Made by a program: the position numbers and the translations under genes | Assembly: GCF_042231085.1 (NCBI RefSeq) | Contig: NZ_CP102579.1 | DNA length: 64,000 nt | From: Corallococcus interemptor | Lineage (GTDB): Bacteria > Myxococcota > Myxococcia > Myxococcales > Myxococcaceae | Reading direction: 5' to 3' (one strand) | Notes under the pieces: generated by a model | The model's input: only the letters and a program-made list of their open reading frames with translations | Databases searched by the model: none | Told to the model about the DNA's origin: nothing | In this document: in pieces, positions 6,452 to 12,494 of the stretch | Numbering within the stretch: the stretch's first letter is position 1 | How the letters are laid out: each line of letters opens with the position of its first letter

Positions 6452-6787
6452 ATGGTCACCATCGGCATGAACTACGAGGTGCGTGAGGGCAAGGCGGAGG
6501 CCTTCGAGCGGAAGTTCGCGCTCGTGCAGGAGGCGATGCGCGAGCTGCCGGCGCACGTGCACACGGAGCTGTTCAAGAGCGTGGGGGCGCCGGGGCGCTA
6601 CCTCATCGTCTCCGAGTGGCACAGCCGCGAGGGCTTCGACGCCTTCATCGCGTCCGAGGCCTTCCACCGCGTGACGGACTGGGGCGCCAGCGCCATCCTC
6701 GCGAGCCGGCCGCGCCACGAGGTGTATGGCGAGAGGGCCTCCAGCCCCCCCGCGGGCCGCTGCCCGGTCGCGCACGCGGTGCGGTGA
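6452..6787 (+). CDS. Antibiotic biosynthesis monooxygenase (ABM) domain protein
   Basis: ~110 aa ferredoxin-like ABM pattern (YLIVSEWHSREGFDAFIASEAFH). AAGGAGG RBS 7 nt upstream. Confidence 0.7.
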   Translation: MVTIGMNYEVREGKAEAFERKFALVQEAMRELPAHVHTELFKSVGAPGRYLIVSEWHSREGFDAFIASEAFHRVTDWGASAILASRPRHEVYGERASSPPAGRCPVAHAVR

Positions 6788-6798
6788 CGCGGGTGCGA

Positions 6799-7863
6799 AT
6801 GAACGCCATCCGGGTGCTGGTGGTGGACGACGCGGCCGTGGTGCGGCGCCAGGTGTCGCTGCTGCTGGGCGCGGCGCCGGGCCTGGAGGTCGTCGCCACC
6901 GCGCCCAATGGCCGCATCGCCCTGGCGAAGGTGGAGCAGTTCCAACCCGACGTCGTGCTGTTGGACCTGGAGATGCCGGAGCTGGACGGGCTGGAGACGC
7001 TGAAGCTCCTGCGCCAGCGCGCCCCGGAGCTGCCCGTGGTGATGTTCAGCGCGCTCACCGAACGCGCGGGCCTGTTGACCCTGGAGGCGCTCGCGCTGGG
7101 GGCCCGCGACTACGTGACGAAGCCCACGTCCGCGGGCGGAATGAACATCCCCCTGGAGGCCGTGCGGGACGAGCTGGTGCGCAAGCTCAAGGCGCTGAAC
7201 GTGCGCACGCCCTCCGCCGCGTCTCCACCGTTACTGGTGACGCGCGAGCTCCCGCTCCGGCCGAGGATGCCCGCACGGGTGGAGGCCATCGTCGTCGGCG
7301 CGTCCACCGGGGGCCCGGGCGCGCTGGTGCGCCTGGTGTCCGCGCTGCCCGCGGACCTGCCGGTGCCGGTGTTCATCGTGCAGCACATGCCTCCCGTCTT
7401 CACCCGGCTGCTCGCGGAGCGGTTGCAGGGGGTGACGCCGCTCACCGTGCGCGAGGCGGTGCCGGGCGCGGCCGTGAACGCGGGCGAGGTGTGGGTCGCT
7501 CCCGGCGACTTCCACCTGGCCGTGTGCCGGGATGCCGCGGGCGTGCGGCTGCACACGCACCAGGGGCCGGCGGAGAACGCGTGCCGCCCGGCGGTGGACC
7601 TGCTCTTCCGCTCCGCGGCGGAGGTGTACGGCGCGGGGGTGCTGGCGGTGGTGCTCACCGGCATGGGCCAGGACGGGCTGCGCGGCTGCCGGCGCGTCAA
7701 CGAGGCGGGCGGACAGGTGGTGGTGCAGGACCAGGCAAGCTGCGTCGCCGGCAGCATGCCGGGCGCGGTGGAACAGGCGGGGCTCGCGGATGCCGTGGTG
7801 CCCCTGGAGGTGCTGGCCCCGGAGCTGGCGCGGCGCGTGGATGCGCGCGGACGGAGGACCTGA
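6799..7863 (+). CDS. cheB: Chemotaxis response regulator protein-glutamate methylesterase CheB
   Basis: N-terminal receiver (VLVVDDAAVVRR...DVVLLDLEMPELDG) plus CheB methylesterase domain (GASTGGPGAL, IVQHMPPVFT, LTGMGQDG). Confidence 0.9.
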   Translation: MNAIRVLVVDDAAVVRRQVSLLLGAAPGLEVVATAPNGRIALAKVEQFQPDVVLLDLEMPELDGLETLKLLRQRAPELPVVMFSALTERAGLLTLEALALGARDYVTKPTSAGGMNIPLEAVRDELVRKLKALNVRTPSAASPPLLVTRELPLRPRMPARVEAIVVGASTGGPGALVRLVSALPADLPVPVFIVQHMPPVFTRLLAERLQGVTPLTVREAVPGAAVNAGEVWVAPGDFHLAVCRDAAGVRLHTHQGPAENACRPAVDLLFRSAAEVYGAGVLAVVLTGMGQDGLRGCRRVNEAGGQVVVQDQASCVAGSMPGAVEQAGLADAVVPLEVLAPELARRVDARGRRT

Positions 7864-7865
7864 GC

Positions 7866-8756
7866 ATGTCCCTGCTTCCCGACGACTTCGCGTACCTGCG
7901 GCAGCGCGTGCTGCGCCGCTCCGGGCTCGTGCTGGAGCCCGACACGTACGCGCTGGTGGAGACGCGGCTCACGCCCCTCATGCGCGAGGAGCGGCTGCCG
8001 GACCTCTCCGCCCTGGTCGCGCGGCTGCGCACGCAACCGGAGGGAAGTCCGTTGCACCAGCGGCTGGCGGAGGCGCTGGCCAACCACGAGACGGCCTTCT
8101 TCCGCGACGCGCCCGTCTTCGAGGCCCTGCGCGCCACCGTGCTGCCGGGCCTGCTGGCGAAGCGCGTCCGCACGCGGACGCTGCGCGTCTGGTGCGCGGC
8201 GTGCGCCTACGGTCAGGAGCCCTACAGCATCGCGATGACCCTGGCCGAGGCCGGGCTGCTCATCACCGGCTGGACCGTGCGCATCCTCGCCACCGACTTC
8301 AGCACCCGCGCGCTCGTGCGGGCCAGCGAGGCCCGCTACGACGCGAAGGAGATCCACCGGGGCCTGACGCCCGAGCTGCGCCAGCGCTACTTCCGCCAGG
8401 AGCGCGACGGGTGGCGCCTGAACGAGCACGTGCGCAGGCCGGTGGAGTTCCGGCCGCTCAACCTGATGGACGACTTCCCGCTGGAGGCGCCCGTGGACCT
8501 CGTGTTCCTGCGCAACGTGATGATCTACTGGGACGTGCCCACCCGGCGCGCGGTGCTCGCCCGCGTGCGGCGGATGCTCCACGCGGACGGCTACCTGGTG
8601 CTGGGCGCCGCGGAGTCCTCGCCCCTGGTGGAGGACGGCTTCACGCGGCACCTGATTGGCCAGACGAGCTGGTACCGCCCCACGCCCGCCTCGCCCGGCG
8701 TCGGCGCGTCCGTGGCGGACGCGCCGCGAGCGCCCCGCTCCGGCGCTACACCTTGA
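7866..8756 (+). CDS. cheR: Chemotaxis protein methyltransferase CheR
   Basis: CheR N-domain and SAM-binding domain (RVWCAACAYGQEPYSIAMTL, ILATDFS, VFLRNVMIYWD). Start 3 nt after cheB stop. Confidence 0.9.
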   Translation: MSLLPDDFAYLRQRVLRRSGLVLEPDTYALVETRLTPLMREERLPDLSALVARLRTQPEGSPLHQRLAEALANHETAFFRDAPVFEALRATVLPGLLAKRVRTRTLRVWCAACAYGQEPYSIAMTLAEAGLLITGWTVRILATDFSTRALVRASEARYDAKEIHRGLTPELRQRYFRQERDGWRLNEHVRRPVEFRPLNLMDDFPLEAPVDLVFLRNVMIYWDVPTRRAVLARVRRMLHADGYLVLGAAESSPLVEDGFTRHLIGQTSWYRPTPASPGVGASVADAPRAPRSGATP

Positions 8757-9666
8757 GGCGGATGGCGCCCGGCAGGAGCGTCATGGTGCAGGGCAGCCGG
8801 CCCGGCGTCTCGCCGTCCACGTCCAGGAACACGTCGCCCGTCAGCGCCTCGGCGTGGAGCGTGCGGCAGCGCAGCCGCCGCGTGCCCTTCCAGGTGACGT
8901 GGTCGCCGTTGTAGACGCCCTTGGACTTGAGGACGAAGTCGGACAGGCCGTAGTTGGACCAGATGGTGACGTCGAAGAGGCCGTCGTGCGTCACCGCCTC
9001 CGGCGCCACGAACATGCCGCTGCCGAAGTAGCGGCCGTTGGCCACGGCCACCGCGGTGACGCTCACCGTCTCCGGCTCGCCGCCGTCCACCGTGAGGCGC
9101 ACCTGCTGCTCCTGGTACTTCAGCAGCCCCTTCACGGTGCCCCACATGAAGCTCAGGTGGCCGCCCAGCGCCTTGCTGCCCTGGTTCACCTCGCGGGCCA
9201 CCACCGCGCTCACGCCGAACGAGGCGATGTTGGCGAAGAAGCGCGAGGCCGGCTTGCCGTCGTTGTCGGTGAACTCCAGCCGCCCCACGTCGAAGGGCTC
9301 CGTCGTCTCCGTGCGCAGCCGCTCCAGCGCGGACGTCAGCTCCAGGTCCCACCCGAAGGTGCGGCGGAAGTCGCCGCCGGTGCCTCGGGGCAACAGCCCC
9401 AGCGTGGCCCGGGGGTTGATGACCTGCCCGTCGCGGAAGAAGCCGTTGGTGACCTCGTTGAGGGTGCCGTCGCCGCCCACCGCGACGATGCATTCATAAC
9501 CGTCATCGATGGCCTGCCGCGCCAGACGCGCCGCATCCATGCCGCCGCTGGTGAAGCCGTACCCGAAGTCACCGAGCACCTTGCCCACCTGCGCGGAGAT
9601 CTCCACCCATCGCTTCCCCGTCTGCCCGTTGGCGCTGCGCGGGTTGACCACGAGGAACGTCTTCAT
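8746..9666 (-). CDS. Diacylglycerol kinase catalytic domain / YegS-like lipid kinase
   Basis: DAGK_cat motifs IVAVGGDGTLNEV, GLLPRGTGGDF. Convergent with cheR, ends overlap. Confidence 0.8.
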   Translation of the reverse strand: MKTFLVVNPRSANGQTGKRWVEISAQVGKVLGDFGYGFTSGGMDAARLARQAIDDGYECIVAVGGDGTLNEVTNGFFRDGQVINPRATLGLLPRGTGGDFRRTFGWDLELTSALERLRTETTEPFDVGRLEFTDNDGKPASRFFANIASFGVSAVVAREVNQGSKALGGHLSFMWGTVKGLLKYQEQQVRLTVDGGEPETVSVTAVAVANGRYFGSGMFVAPEAVTHDGLFDVTIWSNYGLSDFVLKSKGVYNGDHVTWKGTRRLRCRTLHAEALTGDVFLDVDGETPGRLPCTMTLLPGAIRLKV

Positions 9667-9823
9667 TCAGTGCCTTCTCCCTGCTGCCAGAACGGCCTGT
9701 TTACGCAATTGTGCGCCGGGGCTCCACTCCGTGACCCACGGGAGGGCCACATCGCCCGGGGTGTTTGTCACCCGGCCCCGTCCATGCTGGGCTCCCCGCC
9801 CCCCGTTTTGCCCTGGACCCCGA

Positions 9824-10501
9824 GTGAAAGCCCCGTCCGCCACCGAGCAGCTCGCGCCCCACCGGGAGGCCACGCGCGCCCTGGACTGGGCGCTGCCCGC
9901 GCTCCGGGCGGACCTGGCGGCGGCGGCGCGGCAGCCCTTCCGGGAGACGGGTGCCCAGGAGGACTTCCTGCACCGGCATGACGCACCGGCCCATGAAGTC
10001 CAGGGAACGGCGCGCACGGAGCGCTTCGAGCGGGCCCTGGCCCGGGTGCGGCGGCTCGCGGACGCGGGCGAGCCGCTGACCTTCCCCCGGATGGTGGAGC
10101 TCCAGTCAGAGCTGCTGGGCGGGCCCACGGGCTTCCGCACCGGGGATGCCTTCGCGCGAGGGGGCGCCCACCGCTACGCGCACGGGCCCGGCCTGGAGGC
10201 CGCCTTCCGCGACAAGGTGGAGGCGGACGCGCGGGAGGAGCGCCACCCGGTGGCACATGCCACCCGGTTGTACCTGGACCTGTGTTTCTTCCACCCCTTC
10301 CCGGACGGCAACGCCCGCGCGGCGCGGCTGTGGCTGGAATACATGCTGCGCCGGGGCCGGCTGCCCACGCCGCCGCTGGCGCCCGTGGTGCTGTGGCCCA
10401 AGCGTCCGGGAGACGCGGCGAACTACACGCGGCTGGCGAGGCTGCTGGCCCGGACCATCGCGGGGCCGGACGCCCCGTGCCGCAACGAGGTGCCCGAATG
10501 A
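9824..10501 (+). CDS. Fic/DOC family protein (start uncertain; GTG 9824 or 9761)
   Basis: Canonical Fic motif HPFPDGNARAARL. Stop overlaps next ATG (ATGA). Confidence 0.65.
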   Translation: MKAPSATEQLAPHREATRALDWALPALRADLAAAARQPFRETGAQEDFLHRHDAPAHEVQGTARTERFERALARVRRLADAGEPLTFPRMVELQSELLGGPTGFRTGDAFARGGAHRYAHGPGLEAAFRDKVEADAREERHPVAHATRLYLDLCFFHPFPDGNARAARLWLEYMLRRGRLPTPPLAPVVLWPKRPGDAANYTRLARLLARTIAGPDAPCRNEVPE

Positions 10502-10953
10502 ACAACAACGCGTCGGCCTTCACGTGGCGCCGCATCCGCGACAGCCTGGATGCCTACTCACCGCAATCGCTGGCGTCCCGGCTGAGGGAGGCCCTGGCTC
10601 CCTTGCGGACCGGAAGCATCCACGCCAGCCGGCTCAAGCAGGCGAAGAACGCCGTGCAGGACCTGCTCCAGGCCGAGCTGGGGGCCTGGTACATCGAGAG
10701 CGGCCTGCCCCTGGGCAATGAAGTGCTGGGGGGCTATTGCTGGTGTCACTCGTTCTTCAACCAGAACCCGCCACACCGGACGATGGATGTGGATGAGAAC
10801 ATCCAGCTCATGATGGACGCGCTGGAGCGGATCCGTTCGTTCCTGTACGCGCTGGACGGCGTGTATCAGGCCTCGCGCCGTCAGCTCGACGCGGCGGCCG
10901 GCGACAGGGCCCTCCGGGACGCGGCGGCGCGGGTGGCGGAGGTGGCCGTATGA
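10498..10953 (+). CDS. Hypothetical protein, paralog A (WRRIRDSLD...GYCWCH motif)
   Basis: Coupled to Fic stop (ATGA). Shares a ~110-aa conserved core with the next gene. Confidence 0.6.
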   Translation: MNNNASAFTWRRIRDSLDAYSPQSLASRLREALAPLRTGSIHASRLKQAKNAVQDLLQAELGAWYIESGLPLGNEVLGGYCWCHSFFNQNPPHRTMDVDENIQLMMDALERIRSFLYALDGVYQASRRQLDAAAGDRALRDAAARVAEVAV

Positions 10954-11645
10954 GCAGGCCGGCCCTGGGGCACTGGCGGCGCATCCGCGACAGCCTGGAT
11001 GGGTATGAGCCGGAGAAGCTCCTCCGGATGCTGCGCGAATACCTGACGCCGCGTGTGCCCCCGGGGACGCGCAAGCTCACGGACGAGCAGCACGACACGA
11101 TGGCGAAACACCTCCAGCGGATGCTCCAGCAGGACCTGGGGCCCTGGTACACGGAGACGGGCCTGTCTCTGGGCAATGAGAGCTTCGGCGGCTACTGCTG
11201 GTGCCACCGCTTCTTCAGACAGAAGCCCACCCCGAACATGAGCGTGGAATACAACATCCAGCTCATCCTCGACGCGCTGGAGCGGTCGCGCGAATGGCTG
11301 TTCAAGCTGGATGCCCACTTCCAGGCGCTGAAGCGGGACCTGCCCTCGGGCCCTGACGACAATGACATCCGCACGCTGGCCCTGGCGGATGCAATCGTCA
11401 CCACGATGAACCTCACCATGGACGCCACGGGCTGCGAGGAGTCCTGGTCCACCTTCGCGGACGAGGCGCTGGCCTGGATGTTCGACGCCATCGGGCTGCG
11501 CCCGGGCTATCAGGCCGGGAAGCTGATGCGGAAGCTGTTCGCCTTCGAGTCCTGGCACTCGCCGTCCACCGAGGAGCTGCGCGGTTCGGCGGAGCAGGTG
11601 GCGGCGGCCGTCGTGGAGGACGAGGGCCGCCGGCACACGCATTGA
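10950..11645 (+). CDS. Hypothetical protein, paralog B (WRRIRDSLD...GYCWCH motif) with C-terminal extension
   Basis: ATG overlaps paralog A stop. Conserved blocks WRRIRDSLDxYxP, LGxWYxExGLxLGNExxGGYCWCHxFFxQxP, NIQLxxDALER. Confidence 0.6.
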   Translation: MSRPALGHWRRIRDSLDGYEPEKLLRMLREYLTPRVPPGTRKLTDEQHDTMAKHLQRMLQQDLGPWYTETGLSLGNESFGGYCWCHRFFRQKPTPNMSVEYNIQLILDALERSREWLFKLDAHFQALKRDLPSGPDDNDIRTLALADAIVTTMNLTMDATGCEESWSTFADEALAWMFDAIGLRPGYQAGKLMRKLFAFESWHSPSTEELRGSAEQVAAAVVEDEGRRHTH

Positions 11646-11664
11646 CCCGGAAGGCGCCCCACCC

Positions 11665-12330
11665 TCAGTGGATGGGCTTCCCGCGCGTCAGCCGGCGGGC
11701 CTGCTCGCGCGAGCCTCCCTTCACCTCGATGCGCTTGCCCTGGGGCACCGTCACCGGGAGCTTCAGGGAGATCTCCAGGACGCCGTTCTCGAAGTTCGCA
11801 TGGACCGACTCCGTGTCGATGCCTTCCGGAAGCGGAATGGCGCGGCGGAACAGACCGCTGCTGCGCTCCAGGCTCCAGACGCCTTCGGCCTCCTCTTCCT
11901 CCTCCAGTTCGAAGGTGCGTTCGCCTTCAATGATGAGCAGGTCATTCAGCAGCTCGACGTGGATGTCCTCCAGCTTCATCCCCGGCAGGTCGGCCTTCAC
12001 GATGAGGTTCCCGTTCCGCTCCACCACGTCCATCTGCGGTGACCAGAGGCCCTCGTCCAGCACGTCGCTCCGGGCAGCGAGGCCCCGTCCTCCGAAGCCC
12101 GTGAAGAGCTGGTCCATGTCCTCCATCACCCGGCGCAGCAGCCCGAACGGGCTCAGGGGTGCGGCCTCCCTGCTGATGGCGGGGGCCTGGGACTCGCGGC
12201 GGGCGATGCCAGCGCCCGTCCTGGGGGCCTGTCCCTGAGACGTGGCGCTCGGCGCGTCGGCCTGGGCGTTCTTCACGGCGGGCGAGGAGGACCCCTCCTG
12301 CGCGCCTGCATTCCTGTTGTCCGTTGCCAT
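11665..12330 (-). CDS. Hsp20/alpha-crystallin family small heat shock protein with low-complexity N-terminal extension
   Basis: ACD motifs (PQMDVVERNGNLIVKADLPGMKLEDIHVEL...AIPLPEGIDTESVHANFENGVLEISLKLP). Start taken at internal ATG (MATDNRN). Confidence 0.8.
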   Translation of the reverse strand: MATDNRNAGAQEGSSSPAVKNAQADAPSATSQGQAPRTGAGIARRESQAPAISREAAPLSPFGLLRRVMEDMDQLFTGFGGRGLAARSDVLDEGLWSPQMDVVERNGNLIVKADLPGMKLEDIHVELLNDLLIIEGERTFELEEEEEAEGVWSLERSSGLFRRAIPLPEGIDTESVHANFENGVLEISLKLPVTVPQGKRIEVKGGSREQARRLTRGKPIH

Positions 12331-12494
12331 GACGTCCTCCCCCGGTGGAGCCGGCTGGCGCCCGGCCGCCGGACCGCACCGGTCACTCAAGCGGGGATGG
12401 AAGCATCCCAACCCCAAACGTGGAGGCGCGCGGCGGGGCCATCAAGGGCCGCCAGGCCGCCGGGCCCCGGGGGCCGTCATTCGCGGCGGCCTCG

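Follow-up and report, generated by a model that had tools for sequence, protein, structure and literature searches.

The 64,000-nucleotide stretch of DNA from Corallococcus interemptor analysed here (contig NZ_CP102579.1; hereafter the window) carries at positions 9824–11645 of the plus strand a three-gene operon, chained by ATGA stop/start overlaps, in which a Fic-family gene is followed by the genes of two paralogous proteins, p1 and p2, referred to as its partners. Fic proteins of this kind form a subfamily that is strictly associated with the partner family, and the chances are about evenly balanced that the partner is an obligate, non-catalytic regulatory subunit of a Fic transferase without an inhibitory helix. 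That a Fic enzyme is paired with a cognate polypeptide is an already known principle; what is new here lies in the Fic subfamily and in the type of domain dedicated to it as a partner.

The association extends well beyond the genus. A word-indexed homologue search remained confined to Myxococcaceae, with next to nothing gained from a second one based on a diverse alignment, and a profile search of 1.84 billion cluster representatives gave 219 partner matches at E ≤ 1e-3 and 66 at E ≤ 1e-10, each match standing for a cluster at 50% identity; 150 representatives are listed. The family is spread over at least three phyla, with members in Myxococcota, Planctomycetota and Streptomyces, on chromosomes as well as on plasmids. 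The Fic gene abuts the partner gene, in either order, in 25 of 25 informative loci, which comprise 17 syntenic loci of Myxococcaceae and eight loci with unrelated flanks; one further contig is too short to judge. The 17 Myxococcaceae loci consist of a lipid kinase gene (minus strand), the Fic gene (plus) and one or two partner genes (plus), and the genes downstream vary by genus. In the eight non-syntenic loci, found on metagenomic contigs, a Streptomyces chromosome and plasmid, and a metagenome-assembled genome (MAG) of Planctomycetota, Fic and partner genes abut and usually overlap. Moreover, in 26 of the 150 listed representatives both are fused into one chain of about 374–550 residues, with the partner N-terminal and the Fic motif HPFxDGN(A/G/S)RxAR intact, and a fused copy is also present on a Streptomyces plasmid. 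The possibility, raised in the first-pass annotation of this DNA, that the family occurs mostly without Fic neighbours is thus refuted by the search for Fic linkage across genomes, given that all 25 loci adjoin Fic and about one-sixth of the representatives are fused.

The reciprocal search, starting from the Fic subfamily, recovered Myxococcota, Planctomycetota, Streptomyces and Nocardiopsis, and a verified partner lies next door to all three of the subfamily members that were examined. Generic Fic loci from metagenomes served as a negative control, and none of the 36 has a partner within 3 kb. They stem from a metagenome scan with the fusion alignment, for which the pattern HPFxDGN[AG]R was too general, so that mostly generic Fic genes were collected.

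The genes of the window operon, its junctions and the conserved segments of the Fic protein are the following:

9824–10501, plus strand: Fic-family gene, putative catalytic subunit, 225 amino acids (aa), GTG start, Pfam PF02661 match
10133–10177, plus strand: FRTGDAFARGGAHRY, conserved segment and putative beta-hairpin flap, with R105, A109, G114 and Y118 invariant in the subfamily alignment (A5)
10292–10327, plus strand: Fic active-site motif HPFPDGNARAAR, the canonical HxFx[D/E]GNGRxxR with Ala in place of its second Gly
10487–10501, plus strand: coupling junction 1, Shine-Dalgarno-like GAGGTG (10487) and then ATGA, the Fic stop overlapping the p1 start
10498–10953, plus strand: partner paralogue p1 (ORF1), 151 aa, derived from a 221-aa protein by an internal deletion
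10938–10953, plus strand: coupling junction 2, GGAGGTG (10938) and then ATGA, the p1 stop overlapping the p2 start
10950–11645, plus strand: partner paralogue p2 (ORF2), 231 aa, full length

The Fic gene and two downstream open reading frames (ORFs) with overlapping stops and starts had been described in the first-pass annotation, and both overlaps were confirmed and have the sequence ATGA. The GTG start at 9824, also proposed there, is accepted because this codon is ATG in Citreicoccus and JPH2 and because in C. sicarius a stop codon lies directly 5' of the start; the sequence upstream shifts frame between species. The window has a G+C content of about 70%, and its proteins in this region are 98–100% identical to those of Corallococcus coralloides KYC2213. 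The ATGA junction after Fic is kept in nearly all Corallococcus loci, and the translational coupling suggested by these overlaps and by the Shine-Dalgarno-like sites, as a pattern conserved across the genus, would count in favour of Fic and partner being subunits of one complex.

With 36.3 bits against Pfam PF02661 (cut-off 24, E = 1e-8), the window protein belongs to the Fic/Fido superfamily, and its sequence matches solved Fic structures weakly (E ~4e-4). Adenylylation-competent Fic proteins are characterised by the motif HxFx[D/E]GNGR1xxR2 (PMC5033356). The catalytic His, the Asp/Glu, the Asn and both arginines of this signature are present in the window protein, and H157, D161, G162, N163, R165 and R168 are invariant in alignment A5; in place of the second Gly of GNGR it has Ala (GNAR). 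The subfamily motif, HPFxDGN(A/G/S)RxAR, is divergent in the same way, with mostly Ala and some Gly or Ser at the variable position of GNxR, and GNAR predominates in the fused relatives. Judged by these active-site residues, the protein would be an AMP (nucleotide-monophosphate) transferase. The segment FRTGDAFARGGAHRY may represent the flap, the target-docking element of Fic folds; its equivalent in the fusion model described below forms strands 310–312 and 317–319.

Of the two partners, p2 is presumably the one that works with Fic in this genome. It is present in every genome examined, matches the family profile over positions 1–232 (E = 1e-115) and has all the signatures of the family, which are G-x-W, T-x-x-x-[D/E]-[A/S]-W-Y, then a Trp and a Gly, and F-x-S-W-x-x-P. 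Its AlphaFold2 model contains nine helices, with a predicted local distance difference test (pLDDT) of 87.8 and a predicted template modelling score (pTM) of 0.85. The conserved segments of p2 are the following:

11190–11207, plus strand: GYCWCH loop of p2, in a non-helical segment of the model (residues ~69–98)
11427–11450, plus strand: TGCEESWS, local form of T-x-x-x-[D/E]-[A/S]-W-Y, in the turn between helices 6 and 7
11538–11564, plus strand: FAFESWHSP, local form of F-x-S-W-x-x-P

Among 102 distant members, the first of the two aromatic motifs is conserved with W in 98%, D/E in 90%, Tyr in 84% and T in 75%, and the second with S in 93%, W in 92%, F in 91% and P in 89%. The Cys/His loop behaves differently. 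Its residues C83, W84, C85 and H86 (p2 numbering) are invariant in Myxococcaceae, and in the family at large it occurs in two subtypes, W-C-x-C-H-S, to which the window proteins belong, and W-C-C-x-x-H-S. It is absent in 29 of 130 full-length members (~22%), including fusions with a perfect Fic motif. The loop is therefore taken as accessory, and the Cys-x-Cys-His block which the first-pass annotation had described as conserved, does not hold up as the core of the family. Even a syntenic partner, that of Hyalangium rubrum (L023 4630–5340), has GGYVSSYFF where the others have GGYCWCHSFF, so that both Cys and the His are replaced and the rest is conserved. A Cys3-His zinc site made of the loop and the T-x-C cysteine was considered and is unsupported, since the loop and the third Cys do not co-vary.

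The loop subtypes also differ in gene order. The Fic gene comes first in the loci with the CxCH subtype (L017/L018, L019, L020 and L021), and the partner comes first on the contig of P0052 and in Streptomyces L022, both with the CCxxH subtype, as well as in the loop-less Planctomycetota locus L024 and on the Streptomyces plasmid L026. Partners of the CCxxH subtype lie upstream of the Fic gene or are fused N-terminally to it, and a position downstream of Fic, as seen in the window, is thus not a fixed feature of the partner. A subgroup of long partners (504–529 aa; P0072, P0076, P0088 and P0094) has about 300 additional aa at the C-terminal end, without a Pfam match; in two loci of such long partners, L020 (424–2013) and L021 (298–1836), an overlapping Fic gene still precedes the partner.

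For the partner, Pfam, NCBIfam and PADLOC gave nothing usable, also on repetition with 58 diverse members (Pfam), none of which matched any model, and with fusions; in the Pfam scans neither an HTH nor an RHH domain was detected. In a Foldseek comparison of the p2 model with the PDB no relative was found (best E 1.9), and a sequence profile search of the PDB gave only artefactual matches to RecA concatemers. A degenerate Fido domain is ruled out by an hhalign probability of 0.2%. No description of the family was found in the searchable literature, and the source records read "hypothetical protein". The GYCWCH proteins can therefore be regarded as a dedicated family outside Pfam, NCBIfam and PADLOC, linked to Fic as the first-pass annotation had proposed.

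How the two proteins may fit together is suggested by the natural fusions. An AlphaFold2 model of the fusion P0148 from a Myxococcota MAG (419 residues, based on an alignment of 39 fusions) has a pLDDT of 94.7 and a pTM of 0.91. For a chain of two domains, such a pTM amounts to a prediction that both are packed against each other in a single defined way, as one rigid body. Compared with the structures of IbpA Fic2, FICD, BtFic and SoFic, the model matches weakly (E 3e-3 or worse, template modelling score ~0.3), in agreement with the weak sequence matches of the window Fic.

Fic proteins are as a rule kept inactive by an inhibitory helix that bears the motif [S/T]xxxE[G/N], the Glu of which binds R2, and this helix is supplied by an antitoxin in class I, by the N-terminus in class II and by the C-terminus in class III (PMC5033356). 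The motif was not found in the window Fic, p1 or p2, nor in any of 17 Fic moieties of the subfamily, and in the 5 of 58 diverse partners that contain it, it lies at non-aligned positions, as chance matches do. Alignment A5 has no conserved Glu N-terminal of the Fic core, and the sequence TERFER in the window Fic was rejected as an in-chain inhibitory helix since its Glu is not conserved in the subfamily. With the motif neither in the Fic chain nor conserved in the partner, the subfamily falls outside classes I–III as these are defined.

The second partner of the window, p1, has a different history. With p2 it shares 47% identity over 137 residues (E = 4e-42), a paralogy far above chance, and both contain GYCWCH, as the first-pass annotation had noticed; they are the only two copies in the 64-kb window. 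The features of p1 are the following:

10732–10749, plus strand: GYCWCH loop of p1
10911–10918, plus strand: deletion scar with one copy of CCTCCGGG left, where intact orthologues have two copies 210 nucleotides apart

In other Corallococcus, p1 has orthologues of 221 aa (P0011 and P0013; COCOR_04891 of C. coralloides DSM 2259), which align with p2 end to end. By DNA alignment with C. interemptor, C. exercitus and C. aberystwythensis, an in-frame deletion of 210 nucleotides (70 codons) between the two CCTCCGGG copies was mapped in the window p1, and C. coralloides KYC2213 has the same deletion. It takes out the whole C-terminal half, including the most conserved motifs of the family, and leaves the N-terminal helices, the GYCWCH loop and the long helix; the frame is preserved, and so is the ATGA overlap by which p1 leads over to p2. 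Owing to it, p1 matches the profile over positions 1–146 only (hmmsearch) and retains only the N-terminal signatures, G-x-W and the Cys/His loop. The 151-aa C. coralloides gene is thereby shown to be a deletion remnant, and not, as had been assumed in the first-pass annotation, a naturally small protein. A reading of ORF1 as a 223-aa protein from a GTG at 10282 was likewise discarded, given that the orthologues begin at the ATGA junction.

In AS-1-6, p1 (P0027, 141 aa) has the same deletion and has lost 10 further residues. A direct repeat, ACGCGCTGGA, occurs twice in the window p1, 30 nucleotides apart (10817–10826 and 10847–10856), and it is there that exactly 10 residues are missing in AS-1-6; from these sequences, the gene seems to be shrinking by successive repeat-mediated in-frame deletions. 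In Corallococcus sp. RDP092CA (L003 5984–6001) p1 is gone except for 16 nucleotides, which separate the stop of Fic from the start of p2 and in which the first bases of p1 and its terminal Shine-Dalgarno-like GGAGGTGA survive. A single partner gene is found in C. praedator, C. sicarius, C. llansteffanensis, Citreicoccus, Pyxidicoccus, Hyalangium and JPH2, and in a neighbour-joining tree all single-copy partner genes of Corallococcus fall inside the p2 clade. This position, together with the presence of p2 in all genomes, identifies p2 as the conserved partner and p1 as a dispensable duplicate, which several lineages lack or have only in degraded form. Ancestrally, as in the usual case today, Fic has a single partner of about 220–240 aa, and the pair of small duplicated partners, seen at first as the defining arrangement, is limited to part of Corallococcus.

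The ratio of nonsynonymous to synonymous substitution rates (dN/dS) indicates moderate purifying selection on all three genes, with 0.20–0.32 for Fic, 0.28–0.51 for p2 and 0.35–0.63 for p1. Between the window and KYC2213 (10498–11645 vs L001 5549–6696), p1 and p2 each differ by four nonsynonymous and no synonymous changes, and the Fic genes by five nonsynonymous and six synonymous ones. These counts, too small for significance, give a hint that selection on the partners is relaxed or diversifying.

A competent-looking active site, no known brake, constant co-translation or fusion and the confident prediction of one body make the partner the best candidate for gating the enzyme. It is most likely a brake, that is, an element restraining or gating the active site. 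The 225-aa Fic protein would then be the catalytic subunit of a two-part enzyme with AMPylation as its chemistry, and the helical partner of about 230 aa would bind it physically also in the split form, approximately 1:1 and as one rigid body, as in the single-polypeptide relatives. The effect of the partner would be inhibitory or regulatory, a role like that of the class I antitoxin or of the in-chain helix of class II with a different build. The Cys-Cys-His loop, frequent but dispensable, may add a metal or redox input, and p1 would be a decaying duplicate, the reading frame of which still brings ribosomes to p2.

Several points weigh against the partner as a gating subunit. That it touches the active site is a supposition. 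The motif T-x-x-x-[D/E]-[A/S]-W-Y resembles the inhibitory motif superficially, with Asp more often than Glu and with Ala/Ser in place of Gly/Asn, and it sits, according to the models, in a turn between helices and not within one helix; the likeness of T-x-x-x-[D/E]-[A/S] is therefore a lead only. The constraint on the partners and on Fic is only moderate, and the Gly to Ala exchange in GNGR could itself alter the use of nucleotides. In addition, the N-terminal domains of other multidomain Fic proteins, such as the TPR domain of FICD and the LRR domain of AvrAC, recruit targets and do not inhibit.

This last point leads to an unlikely alternative, in which the partner is a specificity or adaptor subunit that recruits the target or localises the enzyme, and the two paralogues make two alternative holoenzymes. 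The association, the fusions and the rigid body fit an adaptor equally well, and so does the N-terminal place of the partner in the fusions, as in characterised multidomain Fic proteins, among them FICD and AvrAC, it is often the extra N-terminal domain that binds the target. With only 47% identity, p1 and p2 are nevertheless both under purifying selection where p1 is intact, which fits sub-functionalisation. However, the absence or decay of p1 in several lineages means that no essential second specificity comes from it, and the conserved residues of the partner are common across phyla, which for an adaptor demands an equally conserved target unless these residues form the interface with Fic. 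Finally, a Fic enzyme without a brake is expected to be promiscuous (principle in PMC5033356).

A rather improbable reading, given the setting of the Myxococcaceae locus, is that of a conflict module of the toxin–antitoxin or abortive infection type, with Fic as a growth-arresting toxin, the partner as a labile antitoxin or phage sensor and the fusions as sensors of the "fused toxin–antitoxin" kind. The patchy distribution over three phyla would be in line with it, and so would the 23 plasmids of Streptomyces, Kitasatospora and Embleya that carry the module, split or fused, some of them beside an insertion sequence element. Some distant copies have conflict-type neighbours, an anecdotal observation from three of the eight non-syntenic loci: a HEPN/nucleotidyltransferase (MNT) pair in L020 (2094–2820), a HipA kinase in L024 (8345–8666) and a NACHT NTPase in L019 (4674–5312). 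A precedent is SoFic-AS1, in which a downstream gene neutralises a defensive Fic protein (PMC12249575), and the window Fic has weak PADLOC matches to SoFic, PDC-S04 and PDC-S24, which with 16–31 bits are partial and cover the Fic core, not the full length. The partner, on the other hand, has neither a PADLOC match nor a DNA-binding domain, and the module has no match in 50,697 phage records. In Myxococcaceae it is syntenic and vertically inherited beside a housekeeping-type lipid kinase gene, with no signs of mobile elements, and a covalent fusion prevents release of the toxin through degradation of the antitoxin.

That the partner is instead the substrate of Fic, AMPylated on a conserved Tyr, Ser or Thr in a self-contained switch, is very unlikely. 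Suitable residues exist, such as the W-Y Tyr (84% of distant members) and the F-x-S-W Ser (93%), and regulatory auto-modification of Fic elements has been discussed (PMC5033356), but the rigid, high-confidence packing of the domains suggests a structural subunit and not a substrate bound for a short time, an output domain further downstream is not apparent, and the conserved aromatic residues are equally well explained by packing in the core or interface. An independent enzyme or metalloprotein with a Cys-x-Cys-His centre that merely shares the operon can practically be dismissed in view of the loop-less members, even with C, C and H invariant in Myxococcaceae and CxCH or CCxxH present in about 78% of full-length members.

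Returning to the partner as a dedicated subunit, a more far-reaching version would be a fourth mode of Fic control, in which a large helical subunit replaces the glutamate-plug helix and the Cys-Cys-His loop puts AMPylation under the control of a redox or metal signal. This version is doubtful; if it is true, Myxococcota, Planctomycetota and Streptomyces possess a stress-switchable protein AMPylase. In any case, a coherent Fic subfamily is defined by a competent-looking site, no inhibitory helix and a constant partner without a relative among the solved structures searched, and hundreds of "hypothetical proteins" gain a family worthy of a name. If the partner is a brake, it stands for a new regulatory principle of AMPylation, and in the case of an adaptor, bacteria should possess a conserved target of AMPylation not yet known. 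The natural fusions make structural and biochemical tests of these readings straightforward.

The surroundings of the operon are partly shared among Myxococcaceae. Divergent from Fic lies a gene for a YegS/DAGK-type lipid kinase (8746–9666, minus strand), which takes this place in all of the Myxococcaceae genomes that were examined (those of Corallococcus, Citreicoccus, Pyxidicoccus, Hyalangium and JPH2) and not outside this family. The neighbourhood is probably plain synteny; alternatively, the two genes may have a regulatory region in common. A short element, (T)CCATGCTGGGC, is located at 9781–9795, about 30–45 nucleotides 5' of the Fic start, in all Corallococcus loci, and Citreicoccus and JPH2 have the variant GCGATGCTGCGC; the intergenic DNA around it contains indels. 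This element could serve the operon, or else the divergent lipid kinase gene, as a promoter or operator. A promoter and terminator scan of positions 9400–12000 of the window gave nothing useful. On the other side, and convergent with p2, a gene for an Hsp20/alpha-crystallin-like protein (11665–12417, minus strand) adjoins the module in most Corallococcus loci only. Further 5' of the module there is a CheB/CheR pair (6616–8756, plus strand), with matches only in Corallococcus and a related Myxococcaceae MAG. The labels of the Hsp20-like gene and of the CheB/CheR pair were read from the translations, without a library check.

Among known Fic systems, the effector Fic proteins XopAC/AvrAC (NF041381) are the best NCBIfam match of the window Fic, although this match has 33.1 bits against a cut-off of 450 and covers the Fic core only. 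In contrast to these effectors, the window Fic has no LRR domain and is a cytoplasmic, chromosomally encoded protein of a soil bacterium. Doc/Phd is likewise a two-gene module with a protein of the Fido superfamily, but Doc is a kinase with the motif HxFx[D/N][A/G]NKR (PMC5033356), where the protein described here has DGNAR and both arginines, and the Phd antitoxin is small, encoded upstream and DNA-binding. SoFic-AS1 resembles the operon in that a gene follows directly 3' of the Fic gene, in that case one that counteracts Fic toxicity (PMC12249575). AS1, however, has only 47 aa, SoFic has its own inhibitory helix and a C-terminal domain, and the PADLOC model of SoFic matches the window Fic weakly and over the core only (E 2.2e-5, 22 bits) and the partner not at all.

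The fusion model has the class II proteins SoFic, BtFic and FICD/HYPE among its best matches in structure, and these proteins share with the fused relatives an N-terminal non-catalytic region in the Fic chain. These matches are weak, and the N-terminal [S/T]xxxE[G/N] helix that defines the class is not conserved here; neither is the helix found in the window Fic chain at all, as class II or III would have it. No model of Pfam, those for TPR and for the Fic N-terminus included, matches the N-terminal domain formed by the partner. Class I, represented by FicT/FicA and VbhT/VbhA, has in common with the window operon that a Fic protein and a separate, complex-forming protein are encoded in a tight bicistronic unit, and vertical inheritance and synteny also characterise the enterobacterial FicTA (PMC5033356). 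FicA and VbhA, however, are small, encoded upstream and carry the [S/T]xxxE[G/N] helix, whereas the partners of the window have 151 and 231 aa and are encoded downstream, and the family as a whole, usually of 220–240 aa and elsewhere upstream or fused, is without the motif and without a relative in sequence or fold; the window Fic itself has only a remote similarity to solved Fic proteins. By analogy of role, the module would come closest to classes I and II, as an enzyme with a cognate polypeptide in trans or in cis, but it is a member of neither.

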